DNA of 64,000 bases, from the NCBI RefSeq assembly GCF_050320075.1, contig NZ_CP190018.1. One strand, given 5' to 3'. This document shows positions 15,001 to 40,017 of this stretch, piece after piece. Made by a program: the position numbers and the translations under genes. A model generated the notes under the pieces. The model searched no databases and had not been told where the DNA came from. It was given only the letters and a program-made list of their open reading frames with translations. Origin of the DNA: Escherichia coli (GTDB lineage: Bacteria; Pseudomonadota; Gammaproteobacteria; Enterobacterales; Enterobacteriaceae). Position 1 is the stretch's first letter. Each line of letters begins with the position of its first letter.

Positions 15001-16911
15001 CATCGCGGCGGCAGGTACCGTCAGACTCCAGGAGCCATCAGCCTGCACGGTAGTGGTAAAACTCTGTCCAGCCAGGGTTACTGTGACGGTTTGTCCTGTC
15101 TCGGCCTGTTGAGTGCTACCGGTAAGGGTCAGTGGCGCACCTTTTTCTGCGCCACTGATAATGTCATCGCCGGAGACGGTGTTAATGGTGATTAACGGAG
15201 AAACACCGACCAGCGTGATTGCTCGAGACGCCGCGCCGGTATTTCCTGCAGTATCTGTCACGGTGACGAAAATCGTATTGGCTCCGCGATCCAGCGTGCG
15301 GGTTACCGCTGGGTCCAGCGCCACATTCCAGCTGCCATCTGCCAGCACAATGCCCGTCAGGACATGAGTGCCCAATTTCACCGTTACCGTATCGCCAGGA
15401 GAAGCACCGCTGACTTGTCCGGAGATGATCTGCGCGACGGCCTGCTCAGCATTATTAAGAATATCGTCGCCCGCTACGGTATTAACACTGACCACGGGTG
15501 CTGAGGTATCTACCGTGAAATTCGCGCTGTGGCTGGTGCTGTTCCCTGCCCGATCGCTGACACTGGCATTGACAGCGTAATTACCCTCCGCCAGCGCCTG
15601 GACTTCCGTGGCAGGCAGCGTCACTTGCCAGGTTCCGTCGCTACCGACGGTTGCTGTATGGCTTTTCCCGTTGACGGTCAGTGTTACGGTTTGCCCCGCT
15701 TCTGCATTCGACGTGCCGCTCAGTACCAGCGCGACGTTATGTTCCGCAGCACTGATGATGTTGTCCTGAGCGATGGTGTTGATGGCAAGCGTTGGCGGTT
15801 GGGTATCGACCGTTAGCAGTTGCACGCCGGTGACGGTATTGCCTGTGGCGTCTTTCCCGCTGACCAGCACTGCCTGATTCCCTTCGCCTAACGCCTGCGC
15901 ATCGGCGGTCGGTACCTGCACGCTCCAGGCACCGTTAGCGCCTACGCTGGTGGTGTAGGTTTTGCCGTTTAGCGTAACGGTGAGTTCTGTTCCCTGTGCC
16001 AGATGACTACTGGTGCCAGAAAGCGTAAACCCGGCGGCCTGTTCGCTGGCGTTAATAATGTTATCGCCTGCGGTGGTGGCAACCTGCACGCTGGCCTGAC
16101 TATTGTCGATGGTTAACGTTATCGAACCGGCGTCAGTGATGGTACTGCCGACGATTTGCACCACTGACCAGGTATGTTCGCCCGCGCTTTGCGTGGGCAA
16201 ATCGACGCTCCAGCGTCCATCGCTACCGACCTGAGTACTGGCGATGGTGTCACCATTGCTGTCTTTAATCTGGATGGTCGCCCCCGCCTGCCCGCTGCCG
16301 CTAAAGGTTGGCGTAGTGTCATCGGTGGTATCGTTGGCGGAAAGAATACCGCGTTGATCGCCCTGATTATCGGTTACCAAAAACGATGGCGTGGCGTTGC
16401 CGGGTTCGGCTGGCGGTGGGTTGTTAACCACTTCAGTTTTTGAGTCATCATCGCCACCGCTTGCCAGTAAAGCGCCAAGCGCGCCGCCACCTACCGCCGC
16501 CCCCGCCAGCCATCCCCACGGGAAAGCCGTCGTCTGGCCGACGATATCAAGGTACGGCGCAATGCTTTCAATTGCGGTGGTCTGAGCGGTCAGCTCCACG
16601 GGCGCTAATCCACCTGCCGCGGTATCGGCAAATGTTACGTGGGTCAGTTGTTGACCATCGACAAACACCAGTTCGGATTGTTCGCTGGTATTTGCCGCTT
16701 GCAGGAAATAACCGTTGCAGCGGATCACCGTGCCGTCCTGCATATAGATCAACAAGTCATTTCCGTCACGAACATAACGCGCAACGGCAGATGCCTGAGC
16801 ATGAACCTGCACCACAGAGGGCTCATAAATGACAACCGTAACGTCGCCAGGATTGATCAGCGTTTGTTTGACGGATGTTTTTCGCGAAATAACATCAATA
16901 ATCAGGCTCAT
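1..16911 (-). CDS. Giant repetitive surface adhesin, probable type I secretion substrate (BapA/LapA-like, Ig-like tandem repeats); 5' end in window, 3' end beyond window start (partial, 5,637 codons in window)
   Basis: ATG at 16911-16909 with AGGAA about 8 nt upstream and an in-frame TAA 11 codons further upstream. Window positions 1-3 are in frame, and no minus-strand ORF ending inside 1-16911 is reported in this frame. My translation of the first ~600 codons gives an N-terminal module (MSLIIDVISRK...), a hydrophobic Gly/Ala stretch, then repeated ~100-aa units of the type VDTxxPxxxINTxAGDxIxxAxE...G.TVTxTLNG...DG.W. Plus-strand ORFs across the region are short low-complexity antisense shadows. 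Confidence 0.8.
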   Translation of the reverse strand, partial: MSLIIDVISRKTSVKQTLINPGDVTVVIYEPSVVQVHAQASAVARYVRDGNDLLIYMQDGTVIRCNGYFLQAANTSEQSELVFVDGQQLTHVTFADTAAGGLAPVELTAQTTAIESIAPYLDIVGQTTAFPWGWLAGAAVGGGALGALLASGGDDDSKTEVVNNPPPAEPGNATPSFLVTDNQGDQRGILSANDTTDDTTPTFSGSGQAGATIQIKDSNGDTIASTQVGSDGRWSVDLPTQSAGEHTWSVVQIVGSTITDAGSITLTIDNSQASVQVATTAGDNIINASEQAAGFTLSGTSSHLAQGTELTVTLNGKTYTTSVGANGAWSVQVPTADAQALGEGNQAVLVSGKDATGNTVTGVQLLTVDTQPPTLAINTIAQDNIISAAEHNVALVLSGTSNAEAGQTVTLTVNGKSHTATVGSDGTWQVTLPATEVQALAEGNYAVNASVSDRAGNSTSHSANFTVDTSAPVVSVNTVAGDDILNNAEQAVAQIISGQVSGASPGDTVTVKLGTHVLTGIVLADGSWNVALDPAVTRTLDRGANTIFVTVTDTAGNTGAASRAITLVGVSPLITINTVSGDDIISGAEKGAPLTLTGSTQQAETGQTVTVTLAGQSFTTTVQADGSWSLTVPAAAMGNLPDGAVAITASVTDLSGNTGNTSRTITVDSQAPALSIDPLTADNIINAAESGQDLPITGTTDAQPGQTVTVTLNGQTYQGVVQPDGTWSVTVPAANVGALADGNATVTASVNDIAGNPTSVSRVALVDATPPVVTINPVATDNVINTPEHTQAQIISGTVTGAQAGDIVTVTLNNVDYTTVVDGSGNWSLGVPASVVSGLVDGSYPINVSVTDRAGNTGSQSLTVTVNTAAPLIGINSIAGDDVINASEKGADLQITGTSDQPVNTAITVTLNGQNYTTTTDASGNWSVTVPASAVTALGQANYTVTAAVTSNIGNSNTASHNVLVDSALPGVTINPVATDDIINAAEAGVAQTISGQVTGAEDGDTVTITLGGNTYTATVGSNFTWSVSVPAADIQALGNGDLTVSASVTNQNGNTGSGTRDITIDANLPGLRVDTVAGDDVVNIIEHGQALVVTGSSSGLAEGTPLTVTINNVEYTTAVQADGSWSVGVTAAQVSTWPAGTVNIAVSGESSAGNSVSITHPVTVDLTPAAIAINTIATDDVINAAEKGADLTLSGTTTNVEPGQTVTVTFGGKNYTASVASDGSWTATLPAADLTALPEGSASAQASVSNINGNSASAVHNYSVDSSAPTIIINTVASDNIVNASEADAGVTVSGSTTAEAGQIVTVTLNSPTVQTYQATVQADGSWSINIPAADLEALTDGSHTLTATVNDKAGNPASTTHNLAVDLTVPVLTINTIAGDDIINAAEHGQALVISGSSTGGEAGDVVTVTLNSKTYTTTLDASGNWSVGVPAADVTALGSGPQTVMATVTDAAGNSDSETHTVTVNLTAPTIGINTIATDDIINATEKGADLQISGTSNQPAGTTITVTLNGQNYTATTDASGNWSTTVPASAVGALGEASYTVTANVTDSAGNSNSASHNVQVNTALPGVTINPVASDDIINAAESGVAQTISGQVTGATAGDTVTVTLGGKTYTATVQGNLSWSVDVPAADIQAIGNGDLTVNASVTNGVGNTGSGSRDITIDANLPGLRVDTVAGDDVVNSIEHGQALVITGSSSGLAAGAALTVVINNVTYGATVLADGTWSLGVPAADVGNWPAGTVNITVSGTNTAGTTTTITHPVTVDLAAVAISINTVSGDDVINAAEKSADLTLSGSTSGVEAGQTVTVTFGGKTYTATVAGDGSWTTTVPAADLSALRDGDATVQASVSTINGNTASATHAYSVDATAPTLAINTIATDDILNAAEAGNPLTISGSSNAEAGQTVTVTLNGVTYTGTVQADGSWSVSVPTADLSNLTASPYTVSASVNDKAGNPATATHGLAVDLTVPVLTINTVSGDDIINAAEHGQALVISGSSTGGEAGDVITVTLNSKTYTTTLDASGNWSVGVPAADVTALGSGPQTITATITDIAGNSDDASRTVTVNLTAPTIGINTIASDDVINATEKSADLQITGTSNQPAGTTITVTLNGQNYTATTDSSGNWSATVPASAVSALGEASYTVTANVTDSAGNSNSASHNVLVNSALPAVTINAVATDDIINAAESGNAQTISGQVTGAAAGDTVTVTLGGNTYTATVQANLSWSVSVPAADIQAIGNGSLTVNASVTNVVGNTGNGSRDITIDANLPGLRVDTVAGDDVINSIEHNQALVITGSSSGLTAGTALTVEINNVTYGATVLADGTWSLGIPAADVSNWPAGTVDITVSGTNSAGTTSTITHPVTVDLAGVAITINTLSGDDVINAVEKGETLVVSGSTSGVEAGQTVTVTFGGKNYTTTVESNGSWTVNVPPADLAALPDGAGNVQASVSNINGNSAQADRAYSVDATAPLVTINTIASDDILNVSEAGAGITISGTTTAQVGQTLTVTLNNNTYQTTVQADGTWSVNVPATDLSGLTASSYTVTATVSDKAGNPASADHALAVDVTAPDLTINTVAGDDIINAIEHGQALVVSGTSTGAAAGDVVTVTLNGKNYTTTLDASGNWTVGIPAADVTALATGSQTITASLSDRAGNSDSTTHNVTVDLSGPTLTISTVSDDDIINSTEKTQDLTISGGSSGLATGTTVTVMLNGLAYSATTDSSGNWSVTVPASAVGALGEAVYQISASATDSAGNNGSTTHTVNVESLLPGVIINTVAGDDIINAAEIAVAQTISGQVTGTAVAGNTVIVTIGGNQYTATVQPDLSWSVSVPANVLQALGNGELTISASVTNSANNTGTATHDIVIDANLPGLRVDTVAGDDVINSIEHTQALVITGSGSGLAAGAALTVVINSVTYGATVLADGTWSVGVPAADVTNWPAGTVNIAVSGTNTAGTTTSISHPVTVDLAAVAITINTLSTDDVINAAEKGSDLQLSGTTSDVEAGQTITVIFGGKSYTTTVAAGGTWGLTIPAADLATLPDGAANVQASVSNVAGNSAQATHAYSVDATAPSVTINTIASDDILNAAEAGSALTISGTSTAEAGQTVTVTLNGVNYSGNVQADGSWSVSVPTGDLANLTASPYTVSAAVSDKAGNPASATHNLTVDLAAPVVTINTVAGDDIINATEHAQAQIISGSATGATTGNTVSVTIGTTTYTTVLDANGNWSIGVPASVISALAQGDVTITATVTDSAGNSGTASHTVTVALGAPVLAINTIAVDDIINATEKGADLAISGSSNQPAGTQITVTLNGQNYTTTADASGNWSVTVPASRVSALGEATYTVTAAATDSDGNSGSASHNVQVNTALPGVTINVVATDDIINAAEAGVDQTISGQVTGATAGDTVTVTLGGATYTATVQANLSWSVDVPAAALQALGNGELTISASVTNSVGNTGNGTREITIDANLPGLRVDTVAGDDVVNIIEHGQALVITGSSSGLATDSNVTLTINGQTYVAAVLADGSWSVGVPAADVSAWPAGTVTITASGSTTAGNPVSVTHPVTVDLTAVAVSINAITADDVINAAEKGAALTLSGSTSGVEAGQTVTVTFGGKTYTASVAANGSWSTSVPAADMAALRNGDASAQASVSNVNGNNATTTHAYSVDASVPTVTINTIAGDDILNAAEAGAALTITGSSTAEAGQTVTVTLNGANYTGTVQTDGSWSISVPPADLSALTASNYTVSAAVSDKAGNPASVNHNLTVDTSVPVVTINTVAGDDVINATEHAQAQIISGSATGAATGSTVTVTIGTNTFTTVLDASGNWSVGVPASVVSALANGTVTINASVTDAAGNSGSATHQVTVNTGLPSITFNAISGDNVLNADEKGQPLTISGSSTGLATGAQVTVTLNGHNYSATTDAAGNWTLTVPVSDLAALGQANYIVSASATSAAGNTASSQANLLVDSGLPGVTINTVAGDDIINAAEAGAAQTISGVVTRAAAGDTVTVTLGGNTYTAQVQADLSWSVSVPAADLQALGNGDLTITASVTNANGNTGSGTRDITIDANLPGLRVDTVAGDDIVNSIEHGQALVITGGSSGLNAGVPLTITINGTAYSATVQADGSWSVGIPAANVSAWPAGALTVEVDGQSSAGNPVGVSHPFTVDLTAVAISISTVASDDVINAAEKGTNLTLSGSTSGIESGQTVTVTFGGKTYTASVAANGSWSVNVPAADLAILPDGAANVQASVSSASGNSASATHAYSVDASAPTLTINTIASDDILNATEAGSPLIISGTSTAETGQTVTVTLNGATYSGNVQADGSWSVSVPPSALGALSASNYTVSATVNDKAGNPGSASHNLAVDTTAPVLTINTVVGDDIINDAEHAQALVISGTSTGGEAGDVVSVVLNGKTYTTTLDASGNWSVGVPAADVAALGSGAQTITASVSDRAGNSDDASRTVTVSLTAPVISINTIAGDDVINATEKGSDLALSGISDQPAGTAITVTLNGQNYSATTDSSGNWSVTVPASAVSALGEASYSVTASVTNAQGNSSTASHNVQVNTALPGVTINPVTTDDIINAAEAGSAQTISGQVTGAAAGSTVTVELGGKTYTATVQADLSWNVSVPAADWQALGNGELTVNASVTNAVGNTGSGTRDITIDASLPGLRVDTVAGDDVVNIIEHSQAQVITGSSSGFAAGTALTVVINNQTYAATVLANGSWSVGVPATDVSNWPAGTLNITVSGANSAGTQTSITHPLTVDLTTVAVSINSITSDDVINAAEKGAALTLSGSTSGVEAGQTVTITFGGKTYTTTVAANGSWSTTVPAVDMATLRDGDASAQVRVTNVNGNSATATHEYSVDSAAPTVTINTIASDNIINASEAAAGVTVSGTSTAETGQTLTVTLNGTNYQTTVQADGSWSLTLPASDLTALANNGYTLTASVSDLAGNPGSASKGVTVDTTAPVISFNTVAGDDVINNVEHTQAQIISGTATGAVAGDRLVVTIAGQQYVTSTDASGNWSVGVPASVISGLADGTVTISATITDSAGNSSTQTHNVQVNTAAVSLSVSTISGDNIINAAEAGSALTLSGTGTNFAAGTVVTVLLNGKGYSATIQSNGSWSVNVPAADVAALSDGTSYTVSASAQDSAGNSATASRSVAVDLTAPVISINTVSTDDRLNAAEQQQPLTLNGSTSAEVGQTVTVTFGGKTYTATVAANGTWALNVPAADLAALGQGAQTITASVNDRAGNPGQTTHALTVDTVAPTVTIATVAGDDIINNAEQLAGQTISGTTTAEVGQTVTVTFNGQSWTATVGSGGSWSVFIPAQQFAGLSDGSYTISATVSDQAGNPGSASRGVTLNGDVPSVTINTFAGDDVVNAAEHGSSLVISGTTTAPVGQTLTLTLNGKTYTTTVQTGGSWSYTLGSVDVTALADGNAYVINASVSNAIGNTGSSNHTITVDLSAPAMGINIDSLQADTGLSSSDFITSVSPVVVNGSLTAALASNETAQISIDGGVTWTTLTVTGTTWRYNDSRTLTDGSYLYQVRVIDAAGNVGATDSQNVVIDTIAPDPAVKTIAINAITTDTGLITNDFVTSDTTLAVSGTLGAALSSGEFAQISIDGGTTWQNLSVSGLTWTYLDG
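300..16200 (-). repeat. Intragenic tandem repeat array: ~300-bp (about 100-aa) Ig-like units organised in ~1.8-kb super-repeats
   Basis: Recurring motifs at regular spacing: ctccagcttaaat near 3050, 4850, 6645, 8440, 10240, 12040 (and a variant near 13840); gttttgccgccaaaggtgacggtgac-like near 1291, 2489, 4276, 6076, 7871, 9671, 11471, 13271. Antisense shadow ORFs (MPPKVTVTVCP...) recur at 2489, 6080, 7874, 9674. Array bounds are approximate. Confidence 0.8.
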
Positions 16912-17019
16912 AATGGCATTCCTGATAAATGGCGCACATCCTTAGCGAGTCCATTTATCTAAATAAGACAAAGGTAATCACTCAACAACGATGCATACCT
17001 GATATTAATAATGGCAGGA

Positions 17020-18375
17020 TTATTTCAAGTCGGGTAAGTCGTTGTATAAGCCCTGTTTAATTCCCGCTAATGGAATAAGGTTATTAACCGCAGCGGCATA
17101 ATTCACTGCGGCGACCCAGCCATCATAATTGGCATTTATTTCAGCCGATTGCGCCTGAAAGACATCTTGCTCGACGGTTAATAGATCATTCAGGCTGCGT
17201 TTACCCAATTTATATTCATTTTGGTAGACATCTCGCGTTCTGTGCGCACTTTCAGATTGCGCTAACCCAGCCTCTTCACGACCCCGTGCGCCTGTCCAGT
17301 TGGCATATGCCACAGACGCTCGTTGCAGCACATCCAGTTTTGCCTGTTCGACCTGCGAGGCAGAGATTTTTTGTTGCCCTTCAGCCTGTTGCACCTGGGC
17401 AGAAACCGCGCCGCCCTGATACAGCGGCGCGTTAACGTTCAGTTGTAGCTGATCATCCCAATACGAGCGGTCGCTGGTCTGGTAGCGCGTTTTGCCCCCC
17501 TGAATACTCAGCGTTGGCCAGTATTGCGCTTTCGTTTTTTCCACGCCGTACTGTGCTGACTGGCGTAAGTTTTCTGCCGCCAGCACCAGCGGGATGGACT
17601 GGTAATCAATATTTTTCAGCGATACCGGCTGCTCGGCTAATTCAGCAGGTGGCGCGGCTATCGCCTCCGGCTGTACGCCAGTGAGCACCGCCAGTTGCGC
17701 TTTGGCGCTTGCCATCTGCGCCTGATATTGCTCCAGCGTTGAGCGCATTCCGGCAATGCGCGTCTGGGCCTGTAATTCATCCGACGACGAGTTCAGGCCA
17801 GCGTTAGCACGCAATGCTGCCATGTTGTAGACGTTTTCCAGCGAGTGAATATTGCGTTGAGCCGCATCGCACAAAGCCTGATAACGACTGACTTCCATAT
17901 AGGCAGTCGCCGTTTTCTCTGCAACATCGGTTAAGGTTGCCATCAATTTAAAGCGGTAGCTGTCACGGGCGGCAGTTTGCAGTTTGATATCGTTGTTAGT
18001 TTTACCAAAGTCATACACCAGCTGTGTCAGGGTTATGCCATACGAAACGTTGTTATCAAGCCTGCCACTGGAGTCCGTTTGTCGGGACGGTCCCGCATTG
18101 CCGGTTAATCCAACGTGCGGATACCAGGCACTTTTGGCTTCATCAATTTGCGCTTCGCCAATACCTATCTGCGCCGCCTGTTGAGTGACGTCGGGATTTC
18201 GCGCAAAGGCGCGTAATATACTTTCCTGTAAAGATAATTGGGCAACTGGCGTTACCGCTGGGGCGTTCGCCCATTGTGGCAGCGGTGCAGCAATTGTAGC
18301 TTCTCCCATCACCATAAAACTTATTAAAAAAATAAACCCATTATTTTTACGGCTTTTAAACTGGAATCGCGCCAT
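17020..18375 (-). CDS. TolC-family outer-membrane efflux/secretion protein (probable T1SS outer-membrane factor)
   Basis: 451-aa ORF with N-terminal signal-peptide-like segment (MARFQFKSRKNNGFIFLISFMVMGEATIA) and coiled-coil-rich Q/A/L composition typical of outer-membrane factor proteins; AGGAAG about 10 nt upstream; same strand and 108 bp upstream of the giant adhesin start. Confidence 0.7.
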   Translation of the reverse strand: MARFQFKSRKNNGFIFLISFMVMGEATIAAPLPQWANAPAVTPVAQLSLQESILRAFARNPDVTQQAAQIGIGEAQIDEAKSAWYPHVGLTGNAGPSRQTDSSGRLDNNVSYGITLTQLVYDFGKTNNDIKLQTAARDSYRFKLMATLTDVAEKTATAYMEVSRYQALCDAAQRNIHSLENVYNMAALRANAGLNSSSDELQAQTRIAGMRSTLEQYQAQMASAKAQLAVLTGVQPEAIAAPPAELAEQPVSLKNIDYQSIPLVLAAENLRQSAQYGVEKTKAQYWPTLSIQGGKTRYQTSDRSYWDDQLQLNVNAPLYQGGAVSAQVQQAEGQQKISASQVEQAKLDVLQRASVAYANWTGARGREEAGLAQSESAHRTRDVYQNEYKLGKRSLNDLLTVEQDVFQAQSAEINANYDGWVAAVNYAAAVNNLIPLAGIKQGLYNDLPDLK

Positions 18376-18680
18376 AGATAAGTCACTTCCTTCCAGGTCA
18401 TTATTTTAACTGGTTTTTATAACTAGTCTCATTTTATTAAGAAGGGTAATAACTTGTGCATCTCTTTTGTCGATCATTGATATTGGCAAAGAAATGCAGC
18501 TAAAAAGCTTATACGTTATTTATTTAGAATACACTACGACTTTTAGATTACCATCATACACATTAAGAATAATCCACGGCAATAAGTGATTAGCATCACA
18601 GATTTATCGCGTATATATCATTTTTTTGTGACTTATTTATTAAAGGAATAAGAAAGGTAATTTGAATTAAAGACAAAGGC

Positions 18681-18703
18681 GCAGTACAGGCTGTACTGCG
18701 CAC
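18681..18703 (-). terminator. Probable rho-independent terminator downstream of ybaT
   Basis: Perfect hairpin gcgcagtaca-ggc-tgtactgcgc followed on the minus strand by a T-rich run (CTTTGTCTTTAATT). Confidence 0.5.
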
Positions 18704-21202: not shown

Positions 21203-23707
21203 ATGTCACAAACTATCGACCTGACCCTGGACGGCCTGTCCTGCGGTCACTGCGTTAAACGCGTGAAAGAAAGTCTCGAACAGCGCCCGGATGTTGAGCA
21301 GGCGGATGTGTCTGTCACTGAAGCGCACGTTACCGGGACTGCCAGTGCAGAACAGCTGATCGAAACCATCAAACAAGCGGGTTATGACGCATCTGTAAGC
21401 CACCCAAAGGCTAAACCGCTGGCGGAGTCATCAATCCCGTCGGAAGCACTGACAGCGGTTTCTGAGGCGCTTCCGGCAGCGACCGCCGATGACGATGACA
21501 GCCAGCAGTTGCTGCTGAGCGGCATGAGCTGCGCCAGCTGTGTCACCCGCGTACAAAATGCGTTGCAAAGCGTACCGGGCGTCACTCAGGCACGGGTAAA
21601 CCTGGCGGAGCGTACTGCGCTGGTGATGGGCAGTGCCTCCCCACAAGATTTAGTGCAGGCGGTGGAAAAAGCGGGCTACGGCGCGGAAGCGATTGAAGAT
21701 GACGCTAAACGCCGCGAGCGCCAGCAGGAAACCGCAGTCGCTACGATGAAGCGCTTCCGCTGGCAGGCAATTGTCGCACTGGCGGTGGGTATCCCGGTGA
21801 TGGTCTGGGGGATGCTCGGCGATAACATGATGGTCACCGCTGACAACCGCAGCTTGTGGTTAGTTATCGGCCTGATAACCCTGGCAGTGATGGTTTTCGC
21901 CGGCGGCCATTTTTACCGTAGTGCATGGAAAAGCCTGCTGAACGGTGCAGCGACGATGGATACGCTGGTGGCGCTAGGTACTGGCGTGGCGTGGCTCTAT
22001 TCGATGAGCGTCAACCTGTGGCCGCAGTGGTTCCCGATGGAAGCGCGACATCTTTATTACGAAGCCAGCGCGATGATTATCGGTCTGATCAATCTCGGCC
22101 ATATGCTGGAAGCGCGCGCGCGTCAGCGTTCTTCTAAGGCGCTGGAGAAATTACTCGATTTAACCCCACCGACGGCGCGCCTGGTCACCGACGAAGGTGA
22201 AAAAAACGTGCCGCTGGCAGATGTTCAGCCAGGTATGTTACTGCGCCTGACGACCGGCGACCGTGTGCCGGTAGATGGTGAGATTACCCAAGGCGAAGCG
22301 TGGCTGGATGAAGCGATGCTGACGGGCGAACCTATCCCGCAGCAAAAAGGCGAAGGCGATAGCGTCCATGCCGGGACAGTGGTACAGGACGGCAGTGTGC
22401 TGTTTCGTGCCAGTGCGGTCGGCAGCCATACTACGCTGTCACGGATCATTCGCATGGTGCGACAGGCCCAGAGCAGCAAGCCAGAAATCGGTCAACTGGC
22501 GGATAAAATCTCCGCCGTGTTTGTGCCGGTAGTGGTAGTCATTGCGCTGATCAGTGCGGCAATCTGGTATTTCTTTGGTCCGGCACCGCAGATTGTCTAT
22601 ACCCTGGTGATTGCCACCACGGTGCTGATTATCGCCTGTCCGTGTGCGCTGGGACTGGCGACGCCGATGTCGATTATTTCGGGCGTCGGGCGGGCGGCTG
22701 AGTTTGGTGTGCTGGTGCGGGACGCCGACGCGCTGCAACGCGCCAGTACGCTCGACACCGTGGTGTTCGATAAAACCGGGACGCTGACCGAAGGGAAGCC
22801 GCAGGTTGTCGCAGTAAAAACATTTGCTGATGTTGATGAAGCGCAGGCATTGCGTCTGGCGGCGGCGCTGGAGCAAGGTTCCAGCCACCCGCTGGCACGG
22901 GCGATCCTCGATAAAGCAGGTGATATGCAGCTACCGCAGGTCAACGGTTTCCGCACATTGCGCGGGCTGGGTGTGAGCGGTGAAGCTGAAGGTCATGCGG
23001 TATTGCTGGGCAATCAGGCGCTGTTAAATGACCAGCAAGTTGATACTAAAGCGATTGAGGCAGATATTTCAGCTCAGGCATCACAAGGGGCAACGCCTGT
23101 GCTGCTGGCGGTTGACGGGAAAGCGGTAGCCCTGCTGGCTGTACGCGATCCATTGCGTAGTGATAGCGTGGCGGCGCTGCAACGCCTGCATAAAGCGGGA
23201 TATCGTCTGGTGATGCTAACCGGGGATAACCCAACCACCGCCAATGCGATCGCCAAAGAAGCAGGGATTGATGAGGTGATAGCCGGGGTGCTACCGGACG
23301 GTAAAGCCGAAGCGATCAAACGTCTGCAAAGTGAAGGACGTCAGGTGGCAATGGTGGGCGACGGCATTAACGACGCGCCAGCGCTGGCTCAGGCGGATGT
23401 CGGTATTGCGATGGGTGGCGGCAGTGATGTTGCCATTGAAACCGCGGCGATTACCCTGATGCGCCATAGCCTGATGGGTGTTGCGGATGCGCTCGCGATT
23501 TCCCGCGCAACGCTGCGCAATATGAAGCAGAACCTGCTCGGCGCGTTTATCTACAACAGTATCGGTATTCCGGTCGCCGCCGGTATTTTGTGGCCGTTCA
23601 CTGGAACACTGCTTAACCCGGTGGTCGCCGGAGCGGCAATGGCGCTCTCGTCGATTACCGTAGTGAGTAACGCCAACCGGTTGCTGCGGTTTAAACCGAA
23701 GGAATGA
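21203..23707 (+). CDS. copA: Copper(I)-exporting P1B-type ATPase
   Basis: 834-aa ORF with two N-terminal GLSCGHC / GMSCASC metal-binding motifs, CPC transmembrane motif, DKTGT phosphorylation site and GDGIND motif; SD GGAG upstream. Confidence 0.95.
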
Positions 23708-23789
23708 TTGGTATTTACTTAATGCGTTTGTGAGATCCAGTTCTTGTTGCGCTCCTTTTATGAGTAATGCCATATAAAGTGACTGGCGC

Positions 23790-23990
23790 AGGGAGCGCGC
23801 AGGGGGCGGCCAATCGCCGCCGCCCCCTGCACCCCCGGGCTCTGGCGAACAAAATCTCCGCTGCGCGGTACCCTCAGCTTATCCCTTGCGGCTACCGGGT
23901 CGGGCGCGAGGTAACATCCCTGTAAAACGCGCCCTCAGCCCACATCCATGTGGGCTGCCCCGGCCTTCAGGGAACGCCTCGGCGATTTTG
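23790..23990. repeat. GC-rich palindromic non-coding element in the copA-ybaP spacer
   Basis: No ORF of 60 aa or more that is not attributable to overlap with copA or ybaP. Contains a 12-bp perfect inverted repeat gcagggggcggc / gccgccccctgc with an 8-nt loop and a second palindrome gcccacat-cc-atgtgggc; GC content well above the flanking sequence. Confidence 0.35.
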
Positions 23991-24135
23991 ACGCCACCAA
24001 CACCGGTGCAGTCTTTCGTTTCAAAGCAAAAACAATTTTTCGATCATATTTAAGCTACCACTGAACAAGCCTCATAACTCCATTTGCGCCATCCCTCCCC
24101 GCGCGCTAGCATGATATTTCACAAAGGGAGGTCGT

Positions 24136-24930
24136 ATGGATCTGTTGTACCGGGTAAAAACGCTTTGGGCCGCGCTGCGCGGTAATCATTACACCTGGCC
24201 TGCTATCGATATCTCTCTTCCCGGCAATCGCCATTTTCATCTGATTGGCAGTATTCATATGGGCAGCCACGATATGGCTCCCCTGCCCACCCGTTTGCTC
24301 AAAAAGCTCAAAAACGCCGATGCGCTGATCGTCGAGGCGGATGTTTCCACCAGCGATACGCCTTTTGCTAATTTGCCTGCCTGCGAGGCGCTGGAAGAGC
24401 GCATTAGCGAGGAGCAACTCCAAAACCTGCAGCACATTAGCCAGGAGATGGGCATTTCTACCTCACTCTTTTCTACCCAACCGCTGTGGCAAATCGCGAT
24501 GGTTCTTCAGGCGACGCAGGCACAAAAACTGGGGCTGCGGGCAGAATACGGTATCGATTACCAGCTATTGCAGGCGGCGAAGCAACAACATAAACCCGTG
24601 ATTGAACTGGAAGGGGCTGAAAACCAGATTGCCATGTTGCTCCAGCTCCCTGACAACGGACTGGCACTGCTGGACGATACGCTGACCCACTGGCACACCA
24701 ATGCACGGTTGCTGCAACAAATGATGAGCTGGTGGCTGAATGCGCCGCCGCAAAATAATGAAATAACGCTGCCTAATACGTTCAGTCAATCGCTGTACGA
24801 TGTGCTGATGCATCAGCGAAATCTCGCCTGGCGGGACAAATTATGCGCCATGCCGCCGGGGCGCTATGTGGTCGCAGTCGGTGCACTACACCTGTATGGA
24901 GAAGGGAATTTGTCGCAGATGTTGCGCTAA
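24136..24930 (+). CDS. ybaP: TraB/GumN-family protein YbaP
   Basis: 264-aa ORF, ATG at 24136 with GGAGG upstream. Confidence 0.85.
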   Translation: MDLLYRVKTLWAALRGNHYTWPAIDISLPGNRHFHLIGSIHMGSHDMAPLPTRLLKKLKNADALIVEADVSTSDTPFANLPACEALEERISEEQLQNLQHISQEMGISTSLFSTQPLWQIAMVLQATQAQKLGLRAEYGIDYQLLQAAKQQHKPVIELEGAENQIAMLLQLPDNGLALLDDTLTHWHTNARLLQQMMSWWLNAPPQNNEITLPNTFSQSLYDVLMHQRNLAWRDKLCAMPPGRYVVAVGALHLYGEGNLSQMLR

Positions 24931-25012
24931 AAAAATGGCCAATATCGCTATTGGCCCGTCAAAGAGGAATTTCATTTTTTTATTATTATGCCGTCACTTT
25001 AAGCGACGGTGT
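24929..25012 (-). ncRNA. chiX: ChiX (MicM/SroB) small regulatory RNA
   Basis: Minus-strand sequence ACACCGTCGCTTAAAGTGACGGCATAATAATAAAAAAATGAAATTCCTCTTTGACGGGCCAATAGCGATATTGGCCATTTTTT matches the ChiX sequence as I recall it, including the terminator hairpin (ggccaata/tattggcc) and U-run; lies between ybaP and ybaK. Confidence 0.85.
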
Positions 25013-38085: not shown

Positions 38086-40017
38086 TCAAATGGGGCGGAT
38101 ACTTTCTTCATCCAGCTCCGCATCGAAGAACCGACGCAGGGTCTGAATATTATTATCCGCAATAATGGACTCGCGCGCCTGCGCAAGTTTTTCTTCGTAT
38201 ATCGCCTGACGCCATTCCAGCGGCGTACGCACCGCGGGATTATCATCTTCAACGATAGTCAGTTCAACCGTTGAACCTTTTAACATGCTCAACGCTTCAG
38301 CCAGTTTTTGCTGTGCGCCGCGGTTGTTCAAATGCCGCTGAGAGGAGCGCAAATGCAGACATACTGCGTTGTCGCTCTCCTCTTTCCAGGCATTTAACGC
38401 CACCTGTTCGACCAGTTTTGGTAGCGAAAGTTGACTCACCTGAGCCGCCCACGGGTCGCGCTCAATGGCTTCTGCCGCCAGCTTCGCCGCCAGTTCCGGC
38501 GTTTTTTCATGTTCCAGCGCTTTTTTCAGCGCCTTCGGCGTAGCGACCACTTCTTTTTGCTGCATCACTGGAGTGGTGGCCTTCCAGCGATACGCTTCTT
38601 TTTTGGCTGGCGCTTTTTCCAGCGCCGATGGCACCGGACGCGCCTGAACGCGATCGGTGACCGAAGCCAGTCTTTCCAGCGCAGCGTTATTCACCGGCCG
38701 CGCGCGGGTAGCGGCTGCCGGTTCACTCTTTTTTGCTTTGGTTGCTCCCTGCACGCGCTGCAACTGCTGGCGCGCCGCCAGCACCTGGCTGGTGGTTTCC
38801 GGGAGCGGTACAGTCGGTGCCTGCTGCGGCGCTGATTGCGGTTGCGGCGGCACCTGGGTTGGCGTCATTACTGCCGTTGGCGCGACGGGCGCAAAGGACT
38901 GGCGTGGCACTTCTGGCTCAGGCAGCGGCATACGCGGATGGAACGCCAGCGCGCGCAACAGCGTCATCTCAACGCCCATACGGCGGTCTGGCGCATACGG
39001 TAATTCTTTGCGACCAATCAACAGCGTCTGATAGTAAAGCTGAATATCCGTCGGCGGTATGGTGCGCGCCAGTTCACGCATCCGCAGCTCGATAGCGGCC
39101 ATGTCGTTGCCAAGTGCAGCAGGCGAAAGTTGTACCATCGCAATACGATGCAACAGGCCGAGCATTTCCACCAGCAACGCTTCCCACTCGATACCACGGG
39201 CAGCGGCTTCATTAATCAGTGCCATTACGCGCTCGCCGTTGGCCTCGATCATCGCTTCAACCAGCGACAGCGCCTGATCGTCGTCAAGCGTACCCAGCAT
39301 CGCACTGACCGCCTGAGTTGAAACCTGGCCGTCACCGCTGGCAATCGCCTGGTCGGTCAGACTTAAGGCATCTCGCAGGCTGCCTTCAGCGGCGCGTGCC
39401 AGCAATTGCAGCGCCCGCGGCTCGTGAGCGATATGTTCTTCGTTGAGGATGTGCTCAAGCTGATGGCGAATTTGCTCGACATCCAGCGCCTTGAGATGAA
39501 ATTGCAGACAACGTGACAAAATCGTCACCGGCAATTTCTGCGGATCGGTCGTCGCCAGCAGAAACTTAACGTGCTCTGGCGGCTCTTCAAGGGTTTTTAA
39601 CAGTGCGTTAAAGCTGTGGCGCGACAGCATATGCACTTCGTCGATCAGATAAACTTTGAAACGACCACGCGCCGGAGCGTACTGGACGTTATCCAGCAGG
39701 TCGCGAGTGTCTTCAACTTTAGTGCGCGAGGCGGCATCGATTTCAATCAGATCGACAAAGCGCCCCTGCTCGATTTCACGACAGTTATCGCACACGCCGC
39801 ACGGCGTCGCGGTAATGCCGGTTTCGCAGTTTAGCCCCTTCGCCAGCAGTCGGGCGATAGAGGTTTTTCCGACGCCACGGGTGCCGGAAAAAAGATAAGC
39901 ATGATGAATACGCCCTAACGACAAGCCGTTCGCCAGTGCGGTCAGCACATGTTCCTGGCCGACGACGTCAGCAAAGGTTTGTGGGCGCCATTTTCGGGCT
40001 AAGACCTGATAACTCAT
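38086..40017 (-). CDS. dnaX: DNA polymerase III subunits tau and gamma
   Basis: 643-aa ORF with AAA+ Walker A (GTRGVGKT); contains the frameshift site listed separately. Confidence 0.97.
   Translation of the reverse strand: MSYQVLARKWRPQTFADVVGQEHVLTALANGLSLGRIHHAYLFSGTRGVGKTSIARLLAKGLNCETGITATPCGVCDNCREIEQGRFVDLIEIDAASRTKVEDTRDLLDNVQYAPARGRFKVYLIDEVHMLSRHSFNALLKTLEEPPEHVKFLLATTDPQKLPVTILSRCLQFHLKALDVEQIRHQLEHILNEEHIAHEPRALQLLARAAEGSLRDALSLTDQAIASGDGQVSTQAVSAMLGTLDDDQALSLVEAMIEANGERVMALINEAAARGIEWEALLVEMLGLLHRIAMVQLSPAALGNDMAAIELRMRELARTIPPTDIQLYYQTLLIGRKELPYAPDRRMGVEMTLLRALAFHPRMPLPEPEVPRQSFAPVAPTAVMTPTQVPPQPQSAPQQAPTVPLPETTSQVLAARQQLQRVQGATKAKKSEPAAATRARPVNNAALERLASVTDRVQARPVPSALEKAPAKKEAYRWKATTPVMQQKEVVATPKALKKALEHEKTPELAAKLAAEAIERDPWAAQVSQLSLPKLVEQVALNAWKEESDNAVCLHLRSSQRHLNNRGAQQKLAEALSMLKGSTVELTIVEDDNPAVRTPLEWRQAIYEEKLAQARESIIADNNIQTLRRFFDAELDEESIRPI
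38690..38734 (-). other. dnaX programmed -1 ribosomal frameshift site (A AAA AAG heptamer plus downstream stem-loop) generating gamma
   Basis: Minus strand GCAAAAAAGAGTGAACCGGCAGCCGCTACCCGCGCGCGGCCGG; slippery heptamer at 38734-38728, an in-frame-after-shift UGA two codons later, and a GC-rich stem-loop immediately 3'. Encodes the ...KAKKSEPAAATRARPVN... segment. Confidence 0.85.

Follow-up and report, generated by a model that had tools for sequence, protein, structure and literature searches.

Programmed -1 ribosomal frameshifting in dnaX is reportedly the subject of primary reports by Tsuchihashi and Kornberg (1990), Blinkowa and Walker (1990), Tsuchihashi and Brown (1992) and Larsen et al. 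(1994 and 1997), and the frameshift in the dnaX gene of E. coli K-12 is said to have been described by Flower and McHenry (1990) as well. In E. coli, 50% of the ribosomes that translate dnaX shift and terminate one codon later; the single tRNA-Lys of this bacterium carries a modified U34 (mnm5s2U34) that pairs better with AAA than with AAG, and the shift is stimulated by an upstream Shine-Dalgarno (SD) sequence and a downstream 11-bp stem-loop (PMC5009743). Kinetic and single-molecule work indicates that the slip occurs mainly during translocation of the two tRNA-Lys, which is hindered by the hairpin; a slow, one-tRNA 'hungry' route is taken under limitation of aminoacyl-tRNA (PMC6771820). In a reconstituted system, the efficiency of the dnaX shift was 84%, compared to 50% when AGGGAG was mutated, 20% when the hairpin was deleted, and 2% with G_AAG_AAG at the slippery site (PMC5389563, Kim & Tinoco).

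Several described systems resemble dnaX in part. The copA gene of E. coli, in which a slip at C_CCA_AAG yields CopA(Z), shares with dnaX the -1 direction, an X_XXY_YYZ heptamer ending in AAG, a near-immediate stop and a short N-terminal product, but the gene and the heptamer are different and the product consists of 70 aa. Two DnaX products in a ratio of about 1:1 are likewise made in Thermus thermophilus, by transcriptional slippage, and in Caulobacter, by proteolysis of tau (PMC5009743). These routes differ from that of E. coli in that they involve no ribosomal -1 slippage and lack the cassette of SD sequence, heptamer and hairpin.

We analyzed a stretch of 64,000 nucleotides from the E. coli contig NZ_CP190018.1 (hereafter, the window), in which the only long minus-strand open reading frame (ORF) of the flagged region, at 38086-40017 in the ORF list, is dnaX. 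This gene almost certainly carries the canonical programmed -1 ribosomal frameshift cassette of E. coli dnaX, unchanged from K-12. The features of the locus are as follows:

38086-40017, minus strand: zero-frame dnaX ORF with an ATG start, encoding tau, 643 aa (ORF list, NCBIfam NF005942, Pfam domains I-V)
38723-40017, minus strand: coding region of the predicted gamma, 431 aa (computed; same layout as the joined K-12 gamma CDS YP_009518751.1)
38689-38753, minus strand: complete DnaX frameshifting element, RF00382 (Rfam match and identity to K-12)
38745-38750, minus strand: internal SD-like sequence AGGGAG, a putative stimulator (read from the sequence; stimulator role according to PMC5009743, PMC6771820 and PMC5389563)
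38728-38734, minus strand: slippery heptamer A_AAA_AAG, Lys429-Lys430 (phase check)
38723-38728, minus strand: -1 frame GAG (38728-38726, gamma Glu431) followed by the UGA stop (38725-38723)
38693-38722, minus strand: 3' stimulatory stem-loop (folding, Rfam consensus structure, inverted repeat I4, covariation)

The cassette reads, 5' to 3' on the minus strand, ...UGC AGGGAG CAACCAAAGC A_AAA_AAG AGUGA ACCGGCAGCCGCUACCCGCGCGCGGCCGGU GAAU..., with the AGGGAG lying upstream of the heptamer at a distance of 10 nt (38744-38735). The first A of the heptamer is nucleotide 1284 of the gene, that is, the third base of codon 428, which places the heptamer in the X_XXY_YYZ phase, at codons 429-430 of the 643 codons of dnaX. 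The gamma reading frame follows the zero frame from 40017 to 38728, re-reads G38728 after the -1 slip, and continues through GAG to UGA. Because the GAG codon precedes the -1 frame UGA, the computed 431-aa gamma ends in ...QRVQGATKAKKE (...KAKKE). The stem-loop starts 5 nt 3' of the heptamer (5-6 nt spacing) and consists of a lower stem of 6 bp, in which 38722-38717 pairs with 38698-38693, and an upper stem of 5 bp with one bulged C, in which 38715-38711 pairs with 38705-38703 and 38701-38700; an A/G apposition separates the two stems, and the loop is UACCC. The minimum free energy of this structure is -18.0 kcal/mol when 30 nt are folded and -19.1 kcal/mol when 39 nt are folded, and its arms were also recovered as the inverted repeat I4.

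The initial annotation, which proposed an intact cassette with the heptamer at 38734-38728 on the minus strand, a GC-rich downstream stem-loop, and products of 643 aa (tau) and about 431 aa (gamma), is borne out on all these points: the heptamer is present in the correct phase, the stem-loop occupies 38722-38693 and folds at -18 to -19 kcal/mol, and the computed products are of 643 and 431 aa. Two details required adjustment. The -1 frame UGA had been called immediate; it is present, but one GAG codon intervenes between it and the slippery site, as is already implicit in the gamma terminus ...KAKKE given in that annotation. The cassette had been assigned to 38690-38734, a span that omits the upstream AGGGAG; the complete element is 38753-38689. 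That account is extended here by the intact SD stimulator and by the precise location of GAG and UGA.

The identity of the protein as DnaX is established by the match to the NCBIfam equivalog NF005942 (981.6 bits, with a cutoff of 613). In Pfam searches, residues 20-230 were assigned to the clamp-loader ATPase module, residues 232-358 to domain III, residues 417-498 to the DnaB-binding tau domain IV and residues 500-640 to tau domain V, which binds the Pol III alpha subunit. Domains IV and V are lost in gamma because the shift occurs at codon 430 and the stop comes after codon 431, and it is precisely by this loss that gamma is known to differ from tau.

Compared to dnaX of K-12 MG1655 (b0470), for which both tau and the joined gamma CDS are annotated, the gene in the window shows 98.65% nucleotide identity, with 26 nucleotide differences, most of them synonymous; the sole amino acid difference is at residue 257, which is I here and V in K-12. 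All these differences lie outside the element. The nearest ones, at nucleotides 1128 and 1440 of the gene, are more than 100 nt beyond either end of the cassette, whereas the 65-nt cassette itself is the same as in K-12 base for base, including the stimulators and their spacings, the phase, the -1 stop and the lengths of both products. Comparison of the frameshift region with K-12 and a search for a mutated heptamer or a lost stem-loop, both suggested in the initial annotation, accordingly turned up complete identity and neither of the two defects. In another chromosome, NZ_CP123240.1, the dnaX gene is 100% identical to that in the window and carries a PGAP annotation, 'DnaX frameshifting element', at nucleotides 1265-1329 of the gene; the cassette has the same coordinates in the dnaX gene of the window.

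The assignment is further supported by the match to Rfam family RF00382 (DnaX ribosomal frameshifting element), with a score of 96.8 bits against a gathering score of 35 and E = 5.8e-20; the match extends from end to end of the model (positions 1-65 of 65) without truncation. Together with the identity to K-12, this full-length match confirms that the -1 frameshift cassette is intact. Two simpler statistics were set aside as sole tests. The AAAAAAG heptamer occurs 15 times in the window, compared to 9.5 +/- 3.0 expected from shuffled sequences, which is not significant and falls within the shuffle range. The folding z-scores of the hairpin, -2.3 for 39 nt and -0.7 for 81 nt, are modestly unusual and are weak because the surrounding gene is GC-rich. 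Taken singly, such pieces are weak evidence; their combination is decisive, by way of the RF00382 score.

Within E. coli, the cassette is nearly invariant. A single copy of dnaX is present in 5424 of the 5426 complete genomes, and 5372 of 5423 complete genomes carry the 65-nt cassette with 100% identity; in the remaining 51, the identity is 95-99%, with the lowest-ranked record deviating at the final 3 nt only. An intact cassette is the expected state and occurs in essentially every E. coli genome. The allele in the window as a whole is rarer, with dnaX genes at least 99% identical to it in only 186 of 5424 genomes.

For comparison across species, we scanned one genome per species with the pattern AGGGAG-N10-AAAAAAGAGTGA, from which the hairpin was deliberately left out. 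Among the matches listed (at least 120 stretches), 77 are in dnaX homologs; the taxa are a sample and include Citrobacter, Enterobacter, Kosakonia, Kluyvera, Pluralibacter, Trabulsiella, Buttiauxella, Serratia, Pantoea, Erwinia and Mixta. The SD sequence, the 10-nt gap, the heptamer and GAGUGA, which are common to these enterobacterial elements, were demanded by the pattern, so that their constancy among these sequences carries no independent weight; the 6-bp lower stem at an equal distance was not demanded and is shared nonetheless. The other 43 of the at least 120 listed matches are outside dnaX and none is related to frameshifting: 35 represent one conserved Collinsella gene start, with a real SD sequence followed by GTG CCA AAA AAG AGT GAG, and the other 8 are scattered and probably due to chance.

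We aligned 63 distinct enterobacterial sequences, that from the window included, and analyzed the covariation in the stem-loop. The lower stem can form in all 63, with three pairs invariant and three variable. Pair 35-58 is G-C in 62 sequences and G-U in one, pair 36-57 is G-C in 62 and A-U in one, and the closing pair 32-61 is A-U in 42, including E. coli, G-C in 19, including Pantoea and Erwinia, and unpaired in 2. Across the 63 sequences, 87-90% of the cells are paired, compared to 25-55% after displacement of the 3' partners by 1-3 columns, and none of 500 shuffles reached the observed covariation score. The upper stem adopts two alternative registers that together cover nearly all 63 sequences: about 27 of the 63, of the E. 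coli and Citrobacter type, have pairs 41-51, 42-50 and 43-49 and a bulged C, whereas 33-36 of the 63, of the Enterobacter and Pantoea type, have pairs 41-52 and 42-51 and no bulge. The 3' arm of the hairpin coincides with a linker of the protein that is poorly conserved, and the maintenance of pairing at this arm points to selection at the RNA level.

From the published work on K-12, we infer the slippage mechanism, its efficiency of about 50% and the roles of the products in this strain. A ribosome on the dnaX mRNA would reach A_AAA_AAG with tRNA-Lys in both the P and the A sites, while the hairpin, located 5-6 nt downstream at the mRNA entrance, would hinder translocation and the AGGGAG located 10 nt upstream would pair with the anti-SD sequence of 16S rRNA. 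Both tRNA-Lys would then re-pair one base back, on AAA AAA, whereupon GAG would be read and translation would terminate at UGA. The resulting gamma protein (431 aa) would comprise domains I-III and should be capable of clamp loading, and tau (643 aa) would additionally possess the DnaB-binding domain IV and the Pol III alpha-binding domain V, the two being produced in roughly equal amounts. The 100% identity of the cassette to that of K-12 suggests that gamma and tau are both made in this strain. The requirement for a host with a single tRNA-Lys that decodes both AAA and AAG is assumed here from the species, given that the window is 99.99% identical to an E. coli chromosome, and from PMC5009743; this tRNA and the enzymes that modify it are encoded elsewhere than in the window, where no tRNA genes were found.

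Of the alternatives to this reading, the one that denies any recoding function, and attributes the element to a chance co-occurrence of A-rich Lys-Lys codons with GC-rich coding sequence, can be given next to no probability. Although the number of AAAAAAG heptamers in the window and the modest z-scores of the hairpin would fit chance, the E value of 5.8e-20 over the full Rfam model, the correct phase of the heptamer, the -1 stop one codon away, the SD sequence at the right distance, the near-invariance in 5423 genomes and the compensatory stem changes across genera all run against it; indeed, these results already refute the chance-motif interpretation. It is also extremely improbable that gamma is produced mainly via a non-ribosomal route, either by proteolysis of tau, as in Caulobacter, or by transcriptional slippage, as in Thermus thermophilus. 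Both routes are known in other bacteria (PMC5009743), and six consecutive A are present at the site, but the runs for which bacterial transcriptional slippage has been described comprise about 9 A or T (PMC5009743), ribosomal frameshifting at this exact sequence has been experimentally established in E. coli, and a conserved, covarying hairpin is predicted by the ribosomal mechanism and not by proteolysis.

A change in output with the cassette intact is another matter: distant differences in dnaX, tRNA-Lys modification or ribosome load could in principle bring about a gamma:tau ratio noticeably unlike that of K-12. This would be compatible with the minority status of the dnaX allele (the 186 of 5424 genomes given above, with 26 nucleotide differences from K-12) and with the tunability of the frameshift, whose efficiency rises to 176% of the wild type upon two substitutions in the stem (PMC5009743). 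Such a shift in ratio is nevertheless very unlikely, given that the 100 nt on either side of the cassette are free of differences, that the three stimulators and their spacings are all identical to those of K-12, and that a long-range stimulator of dnaX is not described in the reviews PMC5009743 and PMC6771820. Further AAAAAAG heptamers, out of phase, are present in the region encoding tau domain IV, at 38604-38598 and 38526-38520, and both are found in K-12 as well; there is similarly little chance that the minority dnaX lineage differs in its gamma:tau ratio or that these extra runs give rise to minor truncated products.

Terminator, promoter and antisense functions of the hairpin were considered and discarded. 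The hairpin is not followed by a U-run, and no terminator-like site is found at its position; the single such site, at 38485-38501 on the plus strand, lies away from the hairpin and is within chance expectation. No promoter-like sites were found in 38300-39100. The plus-strand ORFs that overlap this region are mechanical antisense ORFs and carry no RefSeq annotation.

The dnaX cassette is already known; its description here is a correct annotation point and no discovery. For annotation, the consequence is that dnaX should be assigned two products, tau of 643 aa and, via the -1 frameshift, gamma of 431 aa, and that the element should be labeled RF00382. The frameshift sets the subunit stoichiometry of the DNA polymerase III clamp loader, and a connection of gamma with UV resistance and with Pol IV-dependent mutagenesis has been described (PMC5009743). 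The comparison across species is a small by-product that confirms selection on the hairpin at the RNA level.

Several observations pertain to other parts of the window. The ybaQ gene of K-12 is missing from it. Its first 26.4 kb are 99.992% identical to E. coli YZLc1-3, and the first 18.7 kb, which have no counterpart at this site in K-12, contain a TolC-family gene and the greater part of siiEA, a giant adhesin gene related to BapA. The copA frameshift site is also present in the window, at 21403-21409 on the plus strand; it is a known site, identical to that of K-12.

The dnaX gene carries two further AAAAAAG runs in domain IV, and copA contains a -1 heptamer of its own.

AAAAAAG runs in dnaX domain IV and the copA heptamer
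38598-38604, minus strand, AAAAAAG run in dnaX domain IV (gene nt 1414)
38520-38526, minus strand, AAAAAAG run in dnaX domain IV (gene nt 1492)
21203-23707, plus strand, copA, containing a -1 frameshift heptamer

Both domain IV runs lie in phase 0 (AAA AAA G) and have neither AGGGAG upstream nor a hairpin downstream. K-12 dnaX is the same as that of the window at both positions. Neither run is a canonical -1 site.

A second programmed -1 frameshift site in the window is located at 21403-21409 on the plus strand, inside copA. The heptamer, C_CCA_AAG, starts at gene nt 201 in the X_XXY_YYZ phase and is followed in the -1 frame by GGC and then a UAA stop; the predicted frameshift product is the 70-aa CopA(Z) copper chaperone, with the C-terminus ...HPKG. 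The copA genes of K-12 and the window are identical over nt 190-300, and in the K-12 region RefSeq annotates a joined CDS as 'soluble Cu(+) chaperone'.

Outside E. coli, the pattern AGGGAG-N10-AAAAAAGAGTGA also matches a conserved Collinsella sequence, CTATGAAGGGAGAATCTGTGCCAAAAAAGAGTGAGAGC, found in 35 contigs among the matches listed (L006, L007, L016, L017 and L020 included). This sequence reads as a genuine Shine-Dalgarno element and GTG start of a gene beginning M-P-K-K-S-E-S; the Collinsella matches show no homology to dnaX, and their likeness to the frameshift pattern is therefore coincidental. A different case is L069 (CACSKA010000001.1, labelled Chryseobacterium sp. 18061), which encodes a dnaX protein 85.6% identical to that of E. 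coli, together with a complete enterobacterial frameshift cassette. The presence of such a gene and cassette in a genome of Flavobacteriia is implausible, and the assembly is likely to be mislabelled or contaminated; L066, its sister record in the same project, is 'Citrobacter sp. 18056'. In Candidatus Pantoea persica (L056), the frameshift hairpin is a variant that keeps the lower stem, with one G-U pair (GCCGGC...GCUGGC), and has a much larger loop or a different sequence in place of the upper stem; the stimulator of this symbiont may be relaxed or altered.

Among the 5426 complete E. coli genomes, a dnaX match is absent in 2 and a match to the 65-nt cassette in 3, and two dnaX matches sit on records labelled as plasmids. 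Given that dnaX is essential, both the plasmid-labelled and the missing genes probably reflect problems of replicon labelling or assembly. Of 5424 E. coli genomes, only 186 carry a dnaX at least 99% identical to that of the window, which places the window in a minority lineage. Positions 1-26419 align with the chromosome of E. coli YZLc1-3 (NZ_CP123240.1), a strain from chicken faeces (Yangzhou), at 99.992% identity, with 2 mismatches and 0 gaps.

The following features are also present in the window, the last three being further Rfam matches over threshold.

Other features of the window
1-18684, mainly minus strand, block without a K-12 counterpart at the same site
~17020-18375, minus strand, TolC-family outer-membrane protein gene, after the adhesin ORF
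24929-25012, minus strand, sroB (ChiX sRNA), 82.1 bits
30689-30766, minus strand, naRNA4 (REP-type element), 80.7 bits
55387-55483, minus strand, ffs (4.5S SRP RNA), 68.1 bits

The block adjoins ybaT, whereas K-12 has cueR at that position. It includes an ORF that is open over 5647 codons, extends past the window start and has internal repeats of ~75% identity; this ORF makes up the greater part of a 20.8-kb gene that bears the annotation 'BapA-related adhesin SiiEA' in NZ_CP123240.1. Taken with the TolC-family gene, the adhesin ORF appears to belong to an adhesin island of the type 1 secretion kind. Between copA and ybaP, ~360 bp (23705-24064) have no K-12 match by megablast; the K-12 segment 508151-508877, with ybaQ, is missing or replaced in this interval, and the annotation of the near-identical genome NZ_CP123240.1 lists no ybaQ. 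The sroB, naRNA4 and ffs elements all lie where K-12 synteny predicts.
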